Source of the DNA: an uncultured Planctomycetaceae bacterium | GTDB lineage: Bacteria > Planctomycetota > Planctomycetia > Isosphaerales > Isosphaeraceae | Length of the DNA stretch: 64,000 nucleotides | Direction of reading: 5' to 3' | NCBI GenBank assembly: GCA_963833985.1 | Contig: CAWIAD010000002.1 | Coordinates: 576,001 to 640,000 of the forward strand | Shown: one piece after another, positions 30,341 to 44,190 of the stretch | Numbering within the stretch: the stretch's first letter is position 1 | How the letters are laid out: each line of letters starts with the position of its first letter | Position numbers and translations under genes: made by a program | Notes under the pieces: model-generated | Database searches by the model: none | Told to the model about the DNA's origin: nothing | What the model saw: the letters and a program-made list of their open reading frames with translations, nothing else

Positions 30341-33300
30341 ATGAGACTTTTGCTCAGAAAACTCCTCAAGCTGGTGATGATCCTCGGCATCCTGGTGGGG
30401 TGTTACCTGGGTTACGTGCGCGCCTTCGACACGGTCATGGCGCGGCTGGTCGCTACCCGCAGGGTCGACGAAGTCCCTTTCATCGTCAGAGACTCACGGT
30501 CGAAACGCGAGGCCATTGCTCATGCACGCGAGTCGTTCGGCCGCGACCACTGGACCGCTGACGATAACCTCCAGTTACGTTATTACAACGCCGAACGCGG
30601 GTTCTGGATGTACTCGCAGCACGACGATCCCGTGATCGAGGAAGATGGCGTCCGCTACGACCGAAAACGCATCCGCTTGCGCCCCGCAGCCATCATCTGG
30701 CGTGCCAAGGACGGCAGCAGCACGAAGACCGTCACGGCCGAGGAAGCGATCATCGACTTCAATCAGCCCCTCTCCTTCAACGCCAGGCCGGATGGCGAGC
30801 CAATCATCGTCAAGCACGCGCGGCTGGAACGCAACGTGCAGATCCGCGACGACCGCGGAACGCCGGCAGACCGTAGCGACGACATGAACATCGGCCCGCT
30901 GACCTGGGTCGAGTACAACGACGACAAGCTGGAGATCACCAGCGATTCCGACGTTCTCATCGTTGATCCCGACACCCGGATCACCGGCAACGGGATGCTC
31001 ATCAAACTTCGCCCCAAGTCCGACGCCAAAGCTTCCTCCGCACGCTCGTCGGGTTTCGAAGGCGCCCAGAGTGCACAGCTCAATCGCAACCCGGTCGTCG
31101 TCTTCACCGACGTCGGCAAGACCGGCATTCTTCCCGACACGGCACAGACACGGAACAACGCCGCCGGCAAGGTCGAGCTGAACCCTCAGGTGGATCCCTC
31201 GCGACAACCCAGGCTGGAAGCCTCGCCAGGCAAGAAGACCGCCGTGCCGGTTCCCATGGAGATCCGTGCCGAGGGACCGATGCAGATTTCCTTTCCCAAG
31301 CCGCAACTGCCGGTCAAGGAAGGTCCCCCCGCGCCTGCCGGCCCCACGCTCGTGCACTTCGAACGCAACGTGGTGGTGCGCCGCGGCAAGCCGAGCGAAC
31401 AGCCCGATCAGCTCGGCAGCGACAACCTCGACCTGACCCTGGTCCCGTCCGAAAAGACCCCGGAGCCAAAGCGCCCTCTAAAAGCCAAGCAGGAGAACGA
31501 GCAGCACGGAGCGCTGGGCGACCTGGTCTTGCAGCGCGTGCACGCCACTGGCCATGCCGTCTGGCTGAAGTCGCCTGCCAACGGTGTGCGGACCTTCAGT
31601 AATGAGCTGTTGCACAAGATCGGCGGGCCGGGCGGACCCAATACCACCTACTGGAGCGCTGATGACACCCGGAAAGTCGTCATCGAGAAATACGACTTCA
31701 CCGAGCAACGCCCCCAGGGACCCCAGGGCCCTGTCGTGCGCAAACCGGAATCAGTCACTCACATCTGGACGGTCGACGTCACCATGGTTGACAGCGGCAC
31801 GGGCATGGAGACCGCCAATCTCTTTGCGCGGCCCAGGACTGCTGGAGACACGCCCCGTTCCCGACAGGACCGACAGCTCGCTCAAGGACGTTCCACCCGA
31901 TCGCACGGCCGTCTGGCAAGACCTGATGATGCTCAAGAACCTGCTCGGCCCGGACAAGAAGATCGCCCAGCGCGAGATCGTTCTGAAAGGCCGTCCCAAG
32001 ATCGTCGACAGGCTCCAGGAACAGTCACTCGACGCGGCAGAGACCATCGTCGCCTGGCTCAAGCCCAAACCGCCCGCGGACTCAGCGGGCAAGCTCTCGA
32101 AATCCGCGTCCACACCCGCCCAGGACGGCCAGGGCAATCTCGGCGTGCAGGGGGGGAGCTACCAGATCCAGCGCTTGCTCGCCATTCGCGACGTGCACCT
32201 GCTCGCACCCTCCAAGAACCTGAGTGCCCGCGATCGTCTTGAGGCTGACTTCAAGGAACAGCCCCGACCGCGGCTTGTCGCCTCCAGCACCGCCCCGGCT
32301 TCTGTTCAGCCAGCCAGCGACAACCCACGCGCACCGGCCGCGGAAGACGGAGCACAACCGGGTACGACCGAGGATGCAGCGCAGCAAACTCCGAAGCCGT
32401 CGGAACCCGCCATGCTGGCCCGGGCGAACCGCGTGGAGGCCAGCATCGTCATCGACGCCGACAGTCCATCGGGCGGAGCCAGGAACTCGAGCACCTCCAG
32501 AACGAATCATCGAGCGGGCTCTGCATCTCCGGGTGAGCCTGGCTCGAATTACGAGGTCCGCGACCTGCGTCTCTTCGGCGCGGTCAGCTTGCATCAGGAT
32601 CCATCGCCCGGCAAGACCAAGGGCCAGGACGCCATTGGAGAAACGCTGATCCTGCACAACGAAGGACCGGGCAAAGCGGTCTTCAACCTCTATCACCGCG
32701 ACCCGCGTGCCGCCAAGAGTCTTCCCACGGCGACATCCGCAAGCTCGATCACGCCCGCCCGTGTCAGTAACGAGGACATGACCATCGAGGGCGAGGTGAT
32801 CGGCATGAACCAGATCACCGATCAGGCCTGGGCCTACGGACCGGGCAAGCTGATCCAGTTCACCGATCGCGGACTTCTCTCTGACAAGGCGGAGAATGAA
32901 GACGCCAGGACATCCGGAGAGCTCGATCAGGACGGCGGCCAGGGCCAGCGCCTGAGAGCGAAGTCGTCATCCGGAATCAAGGAATCGCAGACCGTCAAGT
33001 CGAAGCCCAGGACCCGCGCCGGCAAGCCGCTGGCCGAGAAGGTCCCCCTCGAGATCACCTGGGGAGAGAAGATGCTCTTCTACGGCCGGTCGGTTGATCC
33101 CGACGGCCGGCCGGCCGCCAGGGCCGAGTTCTACAAGAACGCCCGCGCCGAGATGGAAGACGGCCTGCTCTACTGCACCAAGCTCATGACGACCTACACG
33201 GACAGGCCCGTCCCGCTTGCCGAGCTGGGCAAGATGAGCCCGGCGCGGCCCGGCGCCACGGCGAAGTCCGGGACGGGATCGTGCGCAGGGCGAGAAGTCC

Positions 33301-34275
33301 AGGGAGCCCGCCGAGCCCAAGCCGGACCTGGCACTGATTGACCTGGTTGGCAATGCTCTGGCGATCAGCCGCAAGGTGGATCCCGACCGGCCGGTCCTGC
33401 TCAGCTTGCAGAAGGTCACCAGTCCACACCTGATCTACGACCGGCGGACCGGTAACTTCCAGAGCCCCGTCCCGGGCATGGTTTACCTCTACGATCGAGG
33501 AAACGACCCCGCCAGCCCCGACGGCCCCCAGTCCGGCGCGGGTTCCGGAAGTGGAAATACTGCCGGCAATCGCCAGCGGATCCGGCCCGTGTCCGGTAAG
33601 CCCGGCGACAAGCAAGGCGGTAAGAAGCCAATCCCGCCCCTGGTGCTGACCCAGATCAAGTTCAGCCGCGAGATGAAAGGCCGGCTTGGAACGGGAAAGA
33701 CCACCGACAAGTACGAGACGCGGTGGGCAGATTTCTTCGGCGACATCGAGGCTGCCCGCACGAAGGTGGCCAGCGAGCGGGAATCGATCAGAAGCTTCGA
33801 CCACCTGCCTCCTGACAGCTATTTCCTCACCTCGCAGACGATGCGCGTGGTGAGCGAGCCTCCGGCGCCGGGCGCAGCAGCCAATGCGCAGGCACGCAAT
33901 TTCCTGAAGGCGTGGGAGAACGCCTACGCCTCCACCTCGGACACGATCATCCAGGCCGACGAGATCACGTATGACTCGCTCAACGACCTGATCTATGCCA
34001 ACGCCCTGGACGGCCGTATGGTCAACGTCATGCAGCAGGCTGCGCCCGGGCAGCCCGGCTCACCCATGCGCGCCGAGGCTGTACGCGTTAACCCCAAGAC
34101 AGGCGCTGCCGTCGTGATCGGTCCTAACGACCTCCAGATGCTCGACAAGCGAACGGGAACGCGCCCGGGCGTCGTGGCCCCGCCCGATCCGAACGCCAAA
34201 CCGCCGAAGCGGCCCAAGAGCCACTATCGCCCGCCGCCCAGCAACGTCGAGCGGCGCGGCTTCACGGGACGCTGA
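30341..34275 (+). CDS. ~1310-aa membrane-anchored protein with LptC/LptA (OstA)-like beta-jellyroll segments; frameshifts at ~31828 and ~33240-33295
   Basis: N-terminal TM, repeated beta-rich units separated by Pro/Ser/Ala linkers, position after kdsD-kdsC. ORFs 30341, 31584 and 33376 join through two frame changes. Confidence 0.65.
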
Positions 34276-34403: not shown

Positions 34404-35540
34404 TCAGTACCCATCGTCGGATATTGCCGCGCTGGCACCCGGGGCGGACAAGCCGGGCTGGACTGAGCCATACCGCTTGTGCCAACCCTCGGCAGCGCGG
34501 GCCGTCGTCAGTTCCTCCCGGCTGAAACCGTAGCGCGCGAACCAGGGCGTGCCGCGTGCCCGCACGAGGGAATCGACCTCGCTGAGACGCTGGCGAGCGG
34601 TTATCTCCGCGAATCGCGTTCGACTGGCGGCCGTTCGCTCCAGAAAGTACTCCTTCCAGAACGCGCGCCCTCCCAGGATTCCGGACGCCCCCACCGCGAG
34701 CGCCATCTCCACCTGTCTGAGGTAATCGGAATAATCCACGCCTGAAGAGAGCAGCACCCAGGGGCGTTCGCTGGCGGCGTCAAGTGCGTGCAGGTTATTC
34801 TCGAACTGCTCCTCTGACTGGCGGCCGAGCGTGCCTGGAAACTCCGACTTGTAGATGTCGCAGAACCGGCTCAGTTGCCTTGCCGCCTCGATCACCGACT
34901 GCGGCTTGCGGTCCAGATAGCTATCATCGGTCTTCTTCTCGCCGCCAAACGGGAACGATACGGTTTCCAGAAGCAGCAAGATATCGTGCTTCTTGCATTC
35001 GTGGTAAACATGTTCGACGAGCTGGAACTGGTTCTCGGCCGAGTTCGGCTCGGTCGGCTCGAACTGGGCCAGCAGTTTGACGGCGTCTGCGCCCATGCGC
35101 TTGATCTTGGCGACGCTCCAGCCGGGCTCCACGGCCGCCATGGGCGCACCCTGCTGGTTCTTGGGGCTGTTCGACATCTCGTACCGCACCAGCAGCCCGG
35201 TATGGGGTGGGATGGCCTCTGACGCGATTGCCGAGAACGCACCGTAGTAAGCGTCGATCAGCACGGCCGATGCCGCCGGGGCCAGCGCGCGCATGATGTC
35301 GAGCTTGGCATCGACGATTTCATCGTAGGTGGGCTCGCGACTCTCGCCCGCGGAGCGTAAAGCGCGTGTTGCCATCTCGATGACCGAGCTGTTCTGATCG
35401 AGTGCCAGCATCGTCAGCGTCCCGTCGGGATTGCTGATACGCTGCAATCCACGAAGCTTGCCCGGGGTCAAGTCCTTGCCCAGCAGGGCCGTTGCGCCGA
35501 GACGGCTTGCACTTTGGATCGGAGTCATGGGAAGGCTCAT
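34404..35540 (-). CDS. Tagatose-1,6-bisphosphate aldolase-like class I aldolase (LacD/YihT family)
   Basis: MLALDQ, GADAVKLL, DIYKSEFP, PWVLLSSGV, GASGILGGRAFW. Confidence 0.85.
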   Translation of the reverse strand: MSLPMTPIQSASRLGATALLGKDLTPGKLRGLQRISNPDGTLTMLALDQNSSVIEMATRALRSAGESREPTYDEIVDAKLDIMRALAPAASAVLIDAYYGAFSAIASEAIPPHTGLLVRYEMSNSPKNQQGAPMAAVEPGWSVAKIKRMGADAVKLLAQFEPTEPNSAENQFQLVEHVYHECKKHDILLLLETVSFPFGGEKKTDDSYLDRKPQSVIEAARQLSRFCDIYKSEFPGTLGRQSEEQFENNLHALDAASERPWVLLSSGVDYSDYLRQVEMALAVGASGILGGRAFWKEYFLERTAASRTRFAEITARQRLSEVDSLVRARGTPWFARYGFSREELTTARAAEGWHKRYGSVQPGLSAPGASAAISDDGY

Positions 35541-35958: not shown

Positions 35959-37023
35959 ATGGCGACCCCCTTTAGCGACCTGCTCGGTGCCGAGGCTGAC
36001 AGCCTGCTCAATCACGTTTGTAAGACCATCCCCAAGCAGTCGCTGCATCTGCCAGGCCCTGACTTTGTTGACCAGGTGTTCGTCCCCAGTGACCGCAACC
36101 CCCGCGTCCTGAACAACCTCCAGCGTATGTTCGGCACCGGCCGCCTGGCCGGAACCGGCTACCTATCCATCCTGCCCGTCGATCAGGGTATCGAACACTC
36201 AGGCGGTGCCAGCTTCGCCAAGAACCCTGCTTACTTCGATCCCGAGAACATCGTCAAGCTCGCCCTGGAGGGGGGATGCAACGCGGTCGCCAGCACCTTC
36301 GGCGTGCTTGGATTCGCTGCCCGCAAGTACGCACACAAGATCCCGTTCCTGGTGAAGATCAACCACAACGAGCTTCTGACCTTTCCCAACCAGTTCAATC
36401 AAGTCCTCTTCGGGACCGTCAAGGAAGCATATGACATGGGTGCCTCCGCGGTCGGGGCCACCATCTACTTCGGCTCGGATCAGAGCACCCGGCAGCTCGT
36501 CGAGATCGCCGAGGCCTTCGCACTGGCTCACGAACTGGGCATGGCCACGGTGCTCTGGTGCTACCTGCGGAACAGCGCCTTCAAGAAGGACAAGGATTAT
36601 CACGTCGCGGCCGACCTCACCGGCCAGGCCAATCACCTGGGCGTCACGATCCAGGCCGACATCATCAAGCAGAAACTGCCCGAAAACAACGGCGGCTTCA
36701 AGGCGCTGAACATGGGCGGTTCGAGCTATGGCAAGCTCGACGAGCGGATGTACACGGAGCTCTGCACGGACCACCCGATTGACCTGTGCCGTTACCAGGT
36801 CGCCAACTGCTACATGGGCCGGGCCGGCCTGATCAATTCGGGCGGTGCCAGCGGCAAGAACGACATGGCCGAGGCGGTGAAGACCTCCGTCATCAACAAG
36901 CGTGCCGGCGGCATGGGCCTGATCTCGGGCCGGAAGGCATTCCAGCGCCCGATGGCCGAGGGCATCAAGCTGCTGAACGCCATCCAGGACGTCTACCTCG
37001 ACGCATCGATCACGGTGGCGTGA
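35959..37023 (+). CDS. fbaB: Class I fructose-bisphosphate aldolase (DhnA/FbaB type)
   Basis: [62 protein letters not shown]. Confidence 0.95.
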
Positions 37024-37114
37024 CCGGAGATCCGAGGGTTCACCCCGCACGTCAGCGAACGGCGCGCGGGTAAAACGCTTCAGAGCGGAACCCTCACGCG
37101 CCGATATAATCCAT

Positions 37115-37275
37115 GTCGGTGGGAGAAATACCGACCCGGTCAGGGATGACCGAGCCAAAAGGCCCCAGAGAGCGGTCGCCTCCAGGGAAGGATTGGCGGC
37201 TGGGGGCCGTAGGGCCAGGGAAGGCCCTGCAACCTTCTCGCTTATGGTCCCGGCCGGTTGAACCTAACCGGCCGG
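37115..37275 (+). ncRNA. Candidate CsrA/RsmA-sequestering small RNA (CsrB/RsmZ-like)
   Basis: TATAAT at 37105-37110, four GGA-loop hairpins (three with C-AGGGAN-G hexaloops) and a terminal 10-bp stem at 37250-37275. Confidence 0.6.
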
Positions 37276-37854
37276 TGGATTGCTGCCCACCCTGAGCGCA
37301 TTGCGCGCCCCGACGCCAATCAGGACGCGGCTCCCGTCCTGGAGCGATCGCTCAAAGAAAAAGAGCTGGGTGATCGGAGTCTTCACCAGTGTCGAGAACT
37401 CTTTCTTGCCCTGCCGGAGCAAGCTGCACCGCAAGTGCACCTTACCGTTCTCATCGGCGGGGCGAACCAGCACGGTTTCCGCCCTGTATCCGTTTCCCAG
37501 GTCGCAGTGGATTCTTTGCGCGGTTTCAAGCCGCTTGCTCTGCACGTCCAGCAGCTTGAATCCGTAACCTGGCAAAAGTTTCCGCAACTCAGCCTGGACC
37601 GGGGCGAGACGAGGATCGACTGCGGCCTGCTGCGGCGTCGCGAGGATCGCGAAGACCGTGACCTGGCGAGCGCCCTCATCAGCGGAACTCTTGAACTTCG
37701 GTTGTGAAGGGGCCTGCGCCTCTCCAGACCCTGGCACCTGTCCCATGACCGGTCCGGAACTGGCGGGCAGGGCGTACCGCATGACCAGCAGCGCTGCGAT
37801 CTGCAAGGTCGTCGATTGCCAGCCTGAGAATCGCCTTGACTTCGCAGCCACCAC
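37264..37854 (-). CDS. Hypothetical exported protein, third gene of the ECF/anti-sigma operon
   Basis: Starts 4 nt after the anti-sigma stop; N-terminal hydrophobic segment. Confidence 0.7.
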   Translation of the reverse strand: MVAAKSRRFSGWQSTTLQIAALLVMRYALPASSGPVMGQVPGSGEAQAPSQPKFKSSADEGARQVTVFAILATPQQAAVDPRLAPVQAELRKLLPGYGFKLLDVQSKRLETAQRIHCDLGNGYRAETVLVRPADENGKVHLRCSLLRQGKKEFSTLVKTPITQLFFFERSLQDGSRVLIGVGARNALRVGSNPPAG

Positions 37855-37857
37855 GGC

Positions 37858-38500
37858 TCACTCCGTCATCGCGACGACCGTGCTGGCCGACTCGACGCGG
37901 TTGAAGAACACGTACCAGGGATCCTCTCCGTTGGGCGCCTCGGACAGCGACAGATCGAGGATCTTCACCGTTGACCCTTCGGAGCGAATCAGGACCACCT
38001 GCCCGGCTTCCACATCCACCACGGGGTCAAGGATGGGAACTGGGGTTTGCTGTACCACCTGGAGAACTGGATCCGGTTCGGGAGCAGGAGCGACGCCTGG
38101 GGTGGAGTTCCAGTAGAGGTTCACCGCGAGCAGGAGAGCGGCCGCCTGAGCCAGGCCAACCAGACCGATGGCGGCCGCACCACGCCACACTGGAAAGCGT
38201 CTCGATCGCCGCAATTCGGCTGCTTCTGTGCTGGGAGTCACCGGCCTGGTGCGGAGGCTCGGAGTCTTTGCCACGGGCACTGGCGAGTTGTCCAGCCGGG
38301 CAGAGACCGCCGACCAGAGATGGTCCCAGGTTTCCGTCGAGGGATCGGCGGGACGGGTCGCTTCCCACATATCGTCGAAACAGTCCGCATGCTTGGCCCA
38401 TTGCGCAATCAGAGCAGTGGGAGAGGTGGTGCGCCAGCCGTTCTTGATTGCGCTCAACCGCCGCCAATCGCAGTTCACGCATGGCTTCATCACACTGCAT
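37858..38500 (-). CDS. Zinc-binding (ZAS) membrane anti-sigma factor; frameshift at ~38404
   Basis: MQCDEA..HLSHCSDC (HxxxCxxC) in one frame continuing QWAKH..; TM AAAIGLVGLAQAAALLLAV; downstream of an ECF sigma gene. Confidence 0.75.
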
Positions 38501-38575
38501 GGGAACCTTCCTCTCCAATCAAACTCCGCCCATTCCATTCCTGTCGCCGAGACTTCAACTCTTCCGGCGGCATAC

Positions 38576-39163
38576 CTAGCCCAGGCCTTTGAGTTTTTCC
38601 CAGTCCAGATTTCTCTGCAACTTCTCTCGTGCACTATTGATCCGGCTCATGACCGTACCGATGGGAATTTCTTGCGTCTCGGCGATTTCCTTATAACTCA
38701 GTCCCAGCTCCGCGAACAGGATGAAGGTCGCCCGGATTTTCGGACTCAGGCGATTCAGGGCGTTCTCGAGGGTCTGCCGTAATTCCTGACGCGTCAGGCC
38801 ATGAGTCGGGTCATCGCGGATGGCCGGTTCCGTGAGATCGTTGCCCCTGCCACCAAGGCTGAAGATCACCCGTCGCTGGCGGCGACGGCCCAGGTCGAGC
38901 GCCGTGTTGGCAACAATCCGCAGCAGCCAGTATCGAAACCCGCTCCGGCCATCAAAATCAGCCAGTCCCAGAAACGCCTTGATCAGAGATTCCTGCACCA
39001 CGTCCAGAGCGTCTTGCTCGTGCCCCAGGAGGCGGTAAGCAACCCGGTAGGCGTCACCTCGATAGCGTTCGAACAGTTCTTCGCAAGCACCGGGGTCTCG
39101 CTCCCGAGCACGCTCTACCAGAGTCTCGTCGGGCGTCTGCACGCTGGGGGGAGCCTCGGGCAT
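38576..39163 (-). CDS. ECF RNA polymerase sigma factor
   Basis: DALDVVQE, FDGRSGFRYWLLRIVAN, LSYKEIAE..IGTVMSR. Confidence 0.92.
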   Translation of the reverse strand: MPEAPPSVQTPDETLVERARERDPGACEELFERYRGDAYRVAYRLLGHEQDALDVVQESLIKAFLGLADFDGRSGFRYWLLRIVANTALDLGRRRQRRVIFSLGGRGNDLTEPAIRDDPTHGLTRQELRQTLENALNRLSPKIRATFILFAELGLSYKEIAETQEIPIGTVMSRINSAREKLQRNLDWEKLKGLG

Positions 39164-41946: not shown

Positions 41947-44190
41947 CCTACTTTCCGCACATCTCCCTTTGATTTCCCCGAATTCGACCTGAGGCCATCT
42001 TCTCAGACGCGGCCCCAGGGTCGGTAAACATCTACAAGTCGATCGGCACGGGGAATTTGTTCGGTTCAGATGGTTCGCCAACCGGACCGTTCCTGAACTC
42101 AAGCCATTCTTCGCCTTGTCTTATGACTTGGCAATGTCCAACCGCGCGCAGCGATTCTCGCCGCGACGACTTGTGACACGGGCTATGAGCGTAAGTTGAG
42201 CGGCTCACAACTTATGTCAAGGCACATTGTTATAAGTGAATCGCAAGATTTTTTGTCCTTGACGTCCCGATCTCCTCCGCCATCATTGCGGCAAGCCCTG
42301 CGGCGGTCGGCCTGCTCCCCTCACGGCCCTGGAAGGCCCGGCGGCGGACACCGGCCAACTCGCTGCAAACCCTCCGGAGATGATCCGCATGAACGAACCA
42401 CAACGACCGCGCCAACCCGGCGAGACGGCCCGCTCGAAGGGACGCACGCGCACGCTCAACACGCGGCGGATTGCCGCCGTGCCCATCCTGGAACACTTCC
42501 TGAGTCGGCTCCGCCTTCGCGAGTTTCTCTGCGACCACCTGCCCCATGAGGACGGCCGCACTCGGGTCCCCACGGCCACGGCCTTGCTCGTCCTGCTGCG
42601 CAACCTGCTGATCTCGCGTGAGCCACTCTATGGTGTCGGTGAGTGGGTGGCCCGCCATGAGCCGAAACTGTTCGGGTTGTCCGATGTCCAAGTCGCCGCA
42701 ATGAACGACGATCGAGTTGGCCGGGCCCTCGACCGTCTCTTCGACGCCAATCTCTCGGGGTTGGCCCTGAAGGTCGCGGCCCATGCCGTACGCGAATTCG
42801 ACGTCAGCCTCGACCAGTTACACAACGACTCGACCACCATCACTTTCCACGGTGACTACGAGTCGGCGGAGGCGGAGCGAACCCTGCGGGGACAATTGCG
42901 GTTGGCGGTGACCTGGGGTCATAACAAAGACCACCGCCCCGACCTCAAGCAGCTACTCTACATCCTCACCGTGACCGGCGACGGTGCCGTCCCGGTGCAC
43001 TTTCGCGTCGAGAGCGGCAACGCCACCGACGACCGCTCTCACCAGGAGACCTGGGAGTTGCTCTGTCAACTGACCGGACGCCGAGACTTTCTCTACATCG
43101 CCGACTGCAAGCTGGCCACCACCGAGAACATGGCCTATCTGCATCAGCGCGGCGGTCGGTTCCTCAGCGTGCTGCCGCGAACTCGCAGTGAGGACGGTGC
43201 CTTCCGCGGCGCCGTACTCCGGGGAGAGATCCAGTGGCGATGGACCCACGACAAGTACGACGACAAGGGACAGTTGACCGACCGCTTCTCGATCTGCAAA
43301 CCTGCGAGCCAGACCACCGAGGGTTACCGGCTGATCTGGTATCACAGCACACGCAAGGCCGAGTTGGATGCGGAGGTACGGCTGACCCGGCTGGAGAAGG
43401 CGTTGAAACGACTGGACGAACTGCGTGCCAAGCTCGCCTCGTCCCGAACCCGGTACCGCAGTCGAGCCAAGGTCGCCGAGGCGGTCGAGGAGCTGCTCCG
43501 AGACTGTGAGGTCACCGAGTGGATCTCGGTCGAGATCGAGGAGCAGGTCACCGAAAAGTTCCGCCAGGAGCGACGCGGCCGGCCTGGACAGGACACGCGG
43601 TACGTCCGAGAGGAGAAGCTCCGTTACTCGTTGAAGCATCGGATTGAGTTGGAGCGACTGGATGAGGAGGCCCGCTGTGATGGCATTTTCCCGCTGGTGA
43701 GCAACGAATCGAAGATGACGGAGCAGGATCTGCTCTTGGCCTACAAACAGCAACCGGCCATCGAACGACGGTTCGAGCACCTGAAGACTGACTTCGTGGT
43801 AGCGCCTATGTACCTGAAGGAGGTAAGTCGGATTCAGGCCTTGCTCTGCGTGTACTTCTTCGTGTTGCTGGTCGAGGCGCTGTTGGAGCGAGAACTCCGC
43901 CGCGCGATGGAACGAGCGGGAATCGAGAGCCTGCCACTGTATTCCGAAGGTCGGGCCTGCCGACGCCCGACGGCTCGAAAAGTGATCGACCTGTACGAGG
44001 ACGTTCAAGAGCATTCCCTGAAGGCTGGGAAACGCCCTCTTGAGGTGTTCAGCACAGAGTTAACTCGGCTCCAGAAGAGGATCCTGCGCCTGCTGGGGAT
44101 ACCCAAAGCCTACGAGATTTGAACCTGACAGGCCGAAAGACGGCACACGGAAATTAGGAGATAGTCAAGGCGAGATGTGCGGAAAGTAGG
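41947..44190 (+). mobile_element. IS1634-family insertion sequence, 2244 bp, with a 6-bp target duplication
   Basis: Perfect 19-bp terminal IRs CCTACTTTCCGCACATCTC (41947-41965 / 44172-44190); AGGGAA direct repeat at 41941-41946 and 44191-44196. Confidence 0.93.
42380..44122 (+). CDS. IS1634-family DDE transposase
   Basis: NDDRVGRALD, HNDSTT, GHNKDHRPDLKQ, GNATD, IADC, YKQQ..IERRFEHLK. Confidence 0.92.
   Translation: MIRMNEPQRPRQPGETARSKGRTRTLNTRRIAAVPILEHFLSRLRLREFLCDHLPHEDGRTRVPTATALLVLLRNLLISREPLYGVGEWVARHEPKLFGLSDVQVAAMNDDRVGRALDRLFDANLSGLALKVAAHAVREFDVSLDQLHNDSTTITFHGDYESAEAERTLRGQLRLAVTWGHNKDHRPDLKQLLYILTVTGDGAVPVHFRVESGNATDDRSHQETWELLCQLTGRRDFLYIADCKLATTENMAYLHQRGGRFLSVLPRTRSEDGAFRGAVLRGEIQWRWTHDKYDDKGQLTDRFSICKPASQTTEGYRLIWYHSTRKAELDAEVRLTRLEKALKRLDELRAKLASSRTRYRSRAKVAEAVEELLRDCEVTEWISVEIEEQVTEKFRQERRGRPGQDTRYVREEKLRYSLKHRIELERLDEEARCDGIFPLVSNESKMTEQDLLLAYKQQPAIERRFEHLKTDFVVAPMYLKEVSRIQALLCVYFFVLLVEALLERELRRAMERAGIESLPLYSEGRACRRPTARKVIDLYEDVQEHSLKAGKRPLEVFSTELTRLQKRILRLLGIPKAYEI

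Follow-up and report, generated by a model that had tools for sequence, protein, structure and literature searches.

In the window analyzed here, a stretch of 64,000 nt from an uncultured Planctomycetaceae bacterium, we report a predicted structured RNA family, located at about 37115–37240 on the plus strand and previously undescribed in Rfam. The RNA is probably a CsrA decoy, made from a promoter with a GCCGATA box, that would free CsrA-bound mRNAs. A first-pass annotation of the same DNA had proposed a sponge RNA at this site; an independent, single-copy plus-strand RNA with CsrA-type loops was upheld by our analysis, whereas the TATAAT promoter, the origin from fbaB, the length and the flanking stems were not. 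All strings quoted in that annotation were found in place (TATAAT at 37105–37110, the hairpins and the stems), and its hairpins at 37115–37135, 37137–37152, 37173–37202 and 37209–37230 were recovered. The features of the region are the following:

35959–37023, plus strand: fbaB-type class I aldolase (Pfam DeoC), upstream neighbour
37034–37095, plus strand: upstream multibranch fold, lineage-specific, overlapping the promoter
37072–37075, plus strand: A-tract directly 5' of the -35 box, UP-element-like, with a putative role
37079–37083, plus strand: -35 box TTCAG, separated by 16 nt from the -10 box
37100–37107, plus strand: sigma-28 (FliA)-type -10 box GCCGATAT
37115–37135, plus strand: hairpin 1 (H1), starting at the predicted +1 G37115, loop with a non-canonical GGA
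37137–37152, plus strand: hairpin 2 (H2), loop AGGGAU at 37142–37147
37161–37208, plus strand: outer helix carrying hairpin 3, 37161–37166 paired with 37203–37208
37173–37202, plus strand: hairpin 3 (H3), loop AGGGAA at 37184–37189
37209–37230, plus strand: hairpin 4 (H4), loop AGGGAA at 37217–37222, where the conserved core ends
37233–37243, plus strand: pyrimidine-rich tail, a possible weak 3' end
37250–37275, no strand assigned: terminal GC hairpin outside the conserved RNA, overlapping the stop of the convergent gene
37264–37854, minus strand: 196-aa conserved hypothetical protein, convergent, the commonest neighbour
37858–39163, minus strand: ECF sigma factor (38576–39163) and the following 258-aa gene

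The fold of 37030–37285 has a z-score of -4.7 and was reached by none of 200 shuffled sequences; the core at 37115–37230, with its four hairpins, scores -4.44 on the plus and -3.30 on the minus strand. Requiring stems of at least 3 bp and hairpins at most 50 nt from each other, we found that the run of three CANGGANG hairpins is unique among 1283 such hairpins in the 10.2-Mb source genome. One such run was also obtained with one of four control motifs, so that rarity alone is weak evidence; the strong evidence for the RNA is its conservation. At the gathering score Rfam returned nothing in the window or in 12 homologous loci, and none of the Csr/Rsm families (CsrB, CsrC, RsmX, RsmY, RsmZ and RsmW) was among the matches listed for 36000–38500 at E up to 10. 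The best weak Rfam match, anti-hemB, lies on the wrong strand and scores 20.7 versus 49.5 bits.

By BLAST, 12 of 40 relatives have matches to the stretch, none of which extends beyond about 37069–37241. A covariance model, as the first-pass annotation had suggested, was built from these 12 sequences and the reference; it matched 75 of 121 genomes of the family. We fetched 77 matches and dropped the three weakest (L105, L106 and L107), which have neither promoter nor layout, leaving 74 loci. Locus L040, whose RNA is identical to that of L039, was left out of alignment A4, and 73 of the 74 loci entered a second covariance model. This model matched 83 of the 121 genomes, from which we removed two (G117 and G125) without promoter and loops. 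We thus count 81 of the 121 family genomes as carrying the RNA, each with one copy; the family is probably Isosphaeraceae. Among 47 near-complete genomes 29 have a match and 18 have none, although all 47 have CsrA and FliA; as the search scored a limited candidate set per genome, a missing match does not equal absence. In a class-wide sample 24 of 150 genomes were matched, with 2 weak matches among the 114 genomes outside the family and no stand-alone copy in these 114. A loose pattern scan over all genomes gave at least 119 stretches, and of the 80 that were scored one is a homolog (L145, titled Planctomycetota, 64.9 bits). A single match on a viral contig covers H1 and H2 only, at 19.7 bits, and was treated as chance. 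In the source genome we found no paralogs, only six weak R2 matches without promoter and layout.

The conservation of the loops, on which the first-pass annotation had staked its proposal, is pronounced: CANGGANG is present in 72 of 74 homologs in H2, in 73 in H3 and in 51 in H4, where GGA is retained in 70 and some homologs have a longer loop. Loop 1 (GGGAGAAAU) differs from the canonical ANGGAN loop; GGA lies in or beside it in 73 of 74 homologs. The A, G, G and A positions of the loops are 96–100% conserved and the N positions vary. These loops resemble the ANGGAN loop of RsmE and come close to the SELEX consensus RUACARGGAUGU (PMC7652899). For the stems, covariation was counted without regard to kinship among the sequences: in a MAFFT alignment of 13 sequences 95.8% of the cells are paired, and two-sided changes were seen in 6 of 33 pairs, a number equalled by 1 of 500 shuffles. 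The corresponding values for a model-fitted alignment of all 77 matches, which includes L105, L106 and L107 and leans towards the model, are 92.9% paired cells and both-side changes in 32 of 33 pairs versus 15.0 in shuffles. In H2 98.7% of the cells are paired, and the outer helix is 91.3% paired with a compensatory change in all six pairs of the model-fitted alignment. On a MAFFT-only alignment of 40 of the 74 loci H1 (with compensatory changes), H2 and the top three pairs of H3 were recovered, with two-sided changes in 10 of the 14 pairs predicted; the outer helix and H4 were missed on this alignment because indels shift the columns there. G-U cells outnumber A-C cells in the alignment (196 versus 40) and the loop spacings occur in all three reading frames, from which it follows that the RNA lies on the plus strand and is non-coding; the plus strand is also the more stable one in 56 of 72 homologs. 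The conserved core measures about 116 nt, roughly a 120-base RNA instead of the ~160 nt first suggested. Sponge sRNAs are defined in PMC7366521 (section 6) as RNAs of 100–400 nt with short hairpins that expose ANGGA, and both the length of the core and its several exposed sites (CANGGANG in H2–H4, GGA in H1) agree with this class.

The stem sequences are more conserved than pairing requires, with UCGG/CCG in H1 and GGUCG in H3 kept at 85–99%, which counts against a plain sponge since such a sponge leaves this conservation unexplained. The fixed H1-H2-[H3]-H4 layout is moreover stiffer than a plain array of hairpins and offers four sites only. Both observations would fit an RNA for which CsrA or another protein is a partner, so that the RNA serves as a scaffold or as a CsrA-assisted base-pairing RNA and the conserved stems are themselves functional; for B. 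subtilis, CsrA has been described to promote the pairing of an sRNA with an mRNA (PMC6546359). However, a pairing seed would be expected in the single-stranded linkers, which are the least conserved part (32–75%), and every invariant unpaired base is found inside the GGA loops. We therefore regard a partner role as rather unlikely and favour the decoy.

Upstream of H1, a GCCGATA-type box with an invariant CGA stands at a fixed distance in all 74 homologs. TATAAT, which had been read as a sigma-70 promoter, occurs in 1 of 74, and no sigma-70 promoter was called. The -10 box of the RNA agrees with the sigma-28 consensus GCCGATAA at -15 to -8 (PMC12784957), and by this -15 numbering the +1 is a G, the first base of H1, in 68 of 74 homologs. 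A T..AG element (T, A and G 80% each) was found 15–17 nt upstream of the -10 box in 63 of 74 homologs, preceded by five successive positions with A at 54–84%. Its variants are TGCAG (29), TTCAG (15), TGGAG (6), TCAAG (4), TAAAG (3) and others (6), i.e. 7 homologs with TCAAG or TAAAG, 56 with the remaining T..AG variants and 11 with none. In the source genome T[CAT]AAG-N16-[GT]CCGATA occurs 11 times, compared to 0–5 times at other spacers (8 to 25), and it precedes fliA and flgM; among 31 flagellin genes of other planctomycetes, 6 have TAAAG-N15-GTCGATA in front of them. The FliA of the source genome scores 270 bits, which is over the cut-off, and its other sigma-70-family genes score 81–113 bits on the FliA model. 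The candidate promoter of the RNA thus seems to be of the sigma-28 (FliA) type with an atypical -35 box; because this box is mostly TGCAG or TTCAG, unlike the TCAAG of fliA and flgM, the assignment of the sigma factor is a presumptive one.

At the other end, conservation ceases right after H4. At least five T within the 9 nt after H4 were counted in only 16 of 73 homologs and a downstream hairpin of at least 8 bp in only 13 of 73, and no plus-strand terminator was called. A 3' intrinsic terminator is typical of Csr/Rsm sponge sRNAs, and the RNA departs from the class in this respect. Two stems that the first-pass annotation had placed around the hairpins do exist in the reference, yet neither is a conserved part of the RNA: CCGGCCGG of the terminal stem (37250–37275) was found downstream in 2 of 74 loci, and GAGGGTTC of the upstream fold GAGGGTTC/GAACCCTC (37034–37095) in 1 of 74.

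Next to the RNA, the most frequent gene is that of the 196-aa protein, which in 51 of 74 loci follows the RNA in the opposite orientation at a distance of 13 to about 1050 nt; in the other 23 it was not found within the fetched flanks. This protein has no Pfam family, no plasmid match and no metagenome locus; the Atlas clusters matched are unnamed, and one homolog with 60% identity is named Isosphaeraceae bacterium. Within flanks of 1.2–1.5 kb, the ECF sigma factor was seen at 14 of the 74 loci and the 258-aa gene, which from its position may have an anti-sigma role, at 26. No conserved same-strand gene follows, so the RNA is no 5' leader. In RNA-seq data (five runs matched at 0.04 of words), contigs of four runs cover fbaB homologs and next to none of the RNA; since contigs cannot show absence, this speaks neither for nor against its expression. 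Elsewhere in the window we noticed three long overlapping ORFs in different frames at 30341–34275 (plus; 633, 585 and 299 aa, no Pfam family), which may represent a single large gene interrupted by frameshifts or by errors of the assembly. Two divergent aldolase genes of the DeoC/LacD family lie at 34404–35540 (minus) and 35959–37023 (plus), and a 580-aa DDE transposase with DUF4277 at 42380–44122 (plus).

Given the convergent neighbour and the lack of a conserved terminator, the hairpins could stand at the start of a longer transcript, made with sigma-28, that reads into the ECF sigma operon in antisense and whose stability or termination CsrA controls; short leaders with two to three CANGGANG sites behind CCGATA promoters indeed precede genes class-wide. 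We consider this unlikely, as 23 of 74 loci lack the neighbour within the flanks fetched and the rest have it at variable distances, conservation stops after H4, and a conserved gene on the same strand is lacking. Still less probable, in our estimate to a degree that leaves it hardly any weight, is a processed fbaB 3' UTR or a structure at the 3' end of the operon on the minus strand: in the source genome the equally oriented fbaB stops 92 nt before the RNA, and the minus strand folds as well (z = -3.30) and gave two terminator-like matches versus 0.6 expected, but fbaB is upstream in only 19 of 74 loci and hence no fixed partner, and the preponderance of G-U over A-C favours the plus strand. 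The derivation from the fbaB 3' UTR that had been envisaged earlier is thus not supported, and the alternative of an RNA independent of fbaB, with its own promoter box in 74 of 74 loci and a single copy, is. Chance folding or a REP-like dispersed repeat, the latter named in advance as a refuting outcome, is refuted by syntenic orthologs in 81 genomes, by covariation and by the single copy per genome where REP/BIME elements have many, even though the genome has 65% GC and a control motif gave one three-hairpin cluster.

A decoy for CsrA presupposes CsrA, and the search for homologs that the first-pass annotation had called for gave 10 matches in the source genome; all 121 family genomes have between 3 and 18 each. 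Eight aligned CsrA sequences of the source genome all keep L4, R6, R31 and R44, of which R44 is essential for RNA binding (PMC7366521), and one CsrA matches RsmE/CsrA structures with an E of about 1e-15, so that a cognate CsrA with RNA-binding residues is at hand as in the sponge class. The ten paralogs (L001–L008 and two more) measure 62–150 aa, the longest (C2:1780691, minus) looking like a tandem or degenerate form, and five of the ten csrA genes carry CANGGAGG at the ribosome site, without a stem. FliA was detected in 112 and FliW in 110 of the 121 family genomes. A flagellin domain over the cut-off, in contrast, was observed in 1 of 121 and in none of the 47 near-complete genomes, versus 76 of 114 genomes of other families in the class. 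The one exception (L264, G089:C5:591642-592055) comes from a 61% complete genome that also carries the RNA, and could reflect either genuine retention or a contig assigned to the wrong bin. In the 81 genomes with the RNA, FliW is found in 74, FliA in 75 and both in 70; this co-occurrence indicates that the partners are present, not that they are linked, because genomes without an RNA match have the proteins too. In the source genome fliW adjoins a csrA with a longer C-terminus. Its fliF, fliO, fliP, fliR, flhB, flhA, flhF and fliA lie in one cluster, with flgM and fliW-csrA elsewhere (loci G000:C2:5210389-5221474, L336; C2:2555884-2556180, L398; C1:2269195-2270015), and neither flagellin nor a rod/hook motif was found in this genome. 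The flagellar export gate and the sigma-28 circuit are retained here in the absence of a filament.

We then turned to possible targets. One of five two-hairpin CANGGANG clusters in the source genome is the leader of fliA (G000:C2:5220498-5220698, relatives L296–L335), which has a self-promoter of the form TCAAG-N16-TCCGATA. We compared 41 fliA leaders of the family (the source genome and 40 of 111 relatives with a match): in 40 a site lies over the ribosome-binding region, 39 times with a stem of at least 3 bp; 40 have a CA(N)GGANG hairpin further upstream, which resembles the SELEX consensus closely; both CsrA-type hairpins occur together in 38; and a TCAAG-N15/16 promoter was observed in 37. 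From other families we collected 30 fliA loci and set aside 4 without an in-frame ATG. Of the remaining 26 leaders, 13 have the proximal hairpin, 1 has the upstream one, none has both and 2 have the promoter. As these leaders mostly lack the features, a fliA leader with two sites and its own promoter is characteristic of the same family as the RNA. On these grounds we view the fliA leader as a candidate CsrA-controlled leader and the fliA mRNA as a likely target of CsrA. The leader stems are short, mostly 3–5 bp; there is overlap between the proximal site and GGAGG, the ribosome site; and the leader of the source genome adopts another fold at minimum energy.

A general overlap of sigma-28 promoters with CsrA sites in the source genome was considered and not found, the sites behind CCGATA showing no genome-wide enrichment (4.0% versus 3.5% ± 0.6). 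In the class as a whole, 46 of 150 genomes have CCGATA boxes with a short leader behind them that contains two to three CANGGANG sites, a pattern several times more frequent than its reversed control and often located before proteins with signal-peptide-like starts (loci L130, L368, L369, L371, L372, L377, L378, L382 and L394–L397). Some of these matches lie inside long reading frames and were dismissed as chance. Other two-hairpin GGA clusters of the source genome are at G000:C2:2723776-2723830 (plus) and C1:1525490 (plus); the latter immediately precedes a 343-aa ORF and may be a leader under CsrA control.

In the mechanism that we infer for transcription, sigma factor, CsrA binding, titration and the target fliA, a sigma-28 (FliA)-type promoter would start the transcript at about G37115, and the transcript would fold into four hairpins with GGA loops, of which three correspond to canonical CsrA/RsmE sites. 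The three strong sites and the weak one would bind one or two CsrA dimers, which would thereby be pulled off mRNA leaders in the fashion of CsrB, RsmY and RsmZ. The fliA mRNA would be one of the targets released, with a feedback in which the RNA, transcribed by means of FliA, takes CsrA away, so that fliA is translated and more FliA results. As a more tentative extension, which we hold to be possible but somewhat short of an even chance, the RNA may have taken the place of the flagellin mRNA as the CsrA sink made by sigma-28, closing the positive feedback on fliA beside FliW. The RNA and FliW possibly split the work among the about ten CsrA paralogs. A point against the decoy comes from a cross-species screen in which about half of the CsrA homologs failed to repress a GGA target (PMC13443453).

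The nearest relatives in kind are CsrB/CsrC, RsmX/RsmY/RsmZ, RsmV and RsmW, which are likewise stand-alone non-coding RNAs of 100–400 nt with short ANGGA hairpins in cells that have CsrA. To our knowledge, sponge sRNAs for CsrA have so far been shown only in Gammaproteobacteria. The RNA described here differs from those by its occurrence in Planctomycetota and outside their Rfam families, by a putative sigma-28-type promoter where those are activated by BarA-UvrY/GacS-GacA, by having only four sites, which are arranged in a fixed fold with covariation and of which one sits on a long helix, by the lack of a conserved U-tract terminator and by its co-occurrence with FliW and 3–18 CsrA paralogs. 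It probably arose independently of them.

By analogy, the nearest working parallel appears to be the flaA mRNA of C. jejuni, a sigma-28-dependent flagellin mRNA whose leader titrates CsrA together with FliW (PMC4894983). Shared with it are the sigma-28-type origin, the GGA hairpins and the action beside FliW, which for our RNA is a prediction; unlike flaA, the RNA has no reading frame and its family has no flagellin gene. Descent from a flagellin leader is unsupported, since the model matches none of 31 planctomycete flagellin loci (best 13.4 bits). With the Hag-FliW-CsrA switch of B. subtilis (PMC7652899, PMC4682653) the family has in common a fliW beside a csrA with a longer C-terminus, whereas the flagellin partner of FliW is missing here and a candidate sRNA antagonist is present. 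Our literature searches, with most subscription papers and supplementary motif lists outside their scope, revealed no planctomycete CsrA-binding sRNA. GGA-rich motifs are known from comparative-genomics screens, and a literature search for the name of a GGA-rich motif found nothing.

Sponge sRNAs and FliW have been called mutually exclusive antagonists of CsrA in a review (PMC7366521), Planctomycetes have been proposed to use FliW against CsrA (PMC4682653), and PMC7652899 describes a joint action of FliW and sRNAs as undetermined for any species. With the RNA and FliW together in 74 of 81 genomes, this question becomes testable, in a system made up of the 116-nt RNA, a handful of small proteins and, as the named candidate target, fliA. 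The RNA further provides a handle on why the family keeps 3–18 CsrA paralogs and a sigma-28 circuit without flagellin. If our reading of it as a decoy is true, Gammaproteobacteria would not be the only bacteria with a CsrA sponge sRNA, and this one would depend on an alternative sigma factor and work side by side with FliW within one cell.
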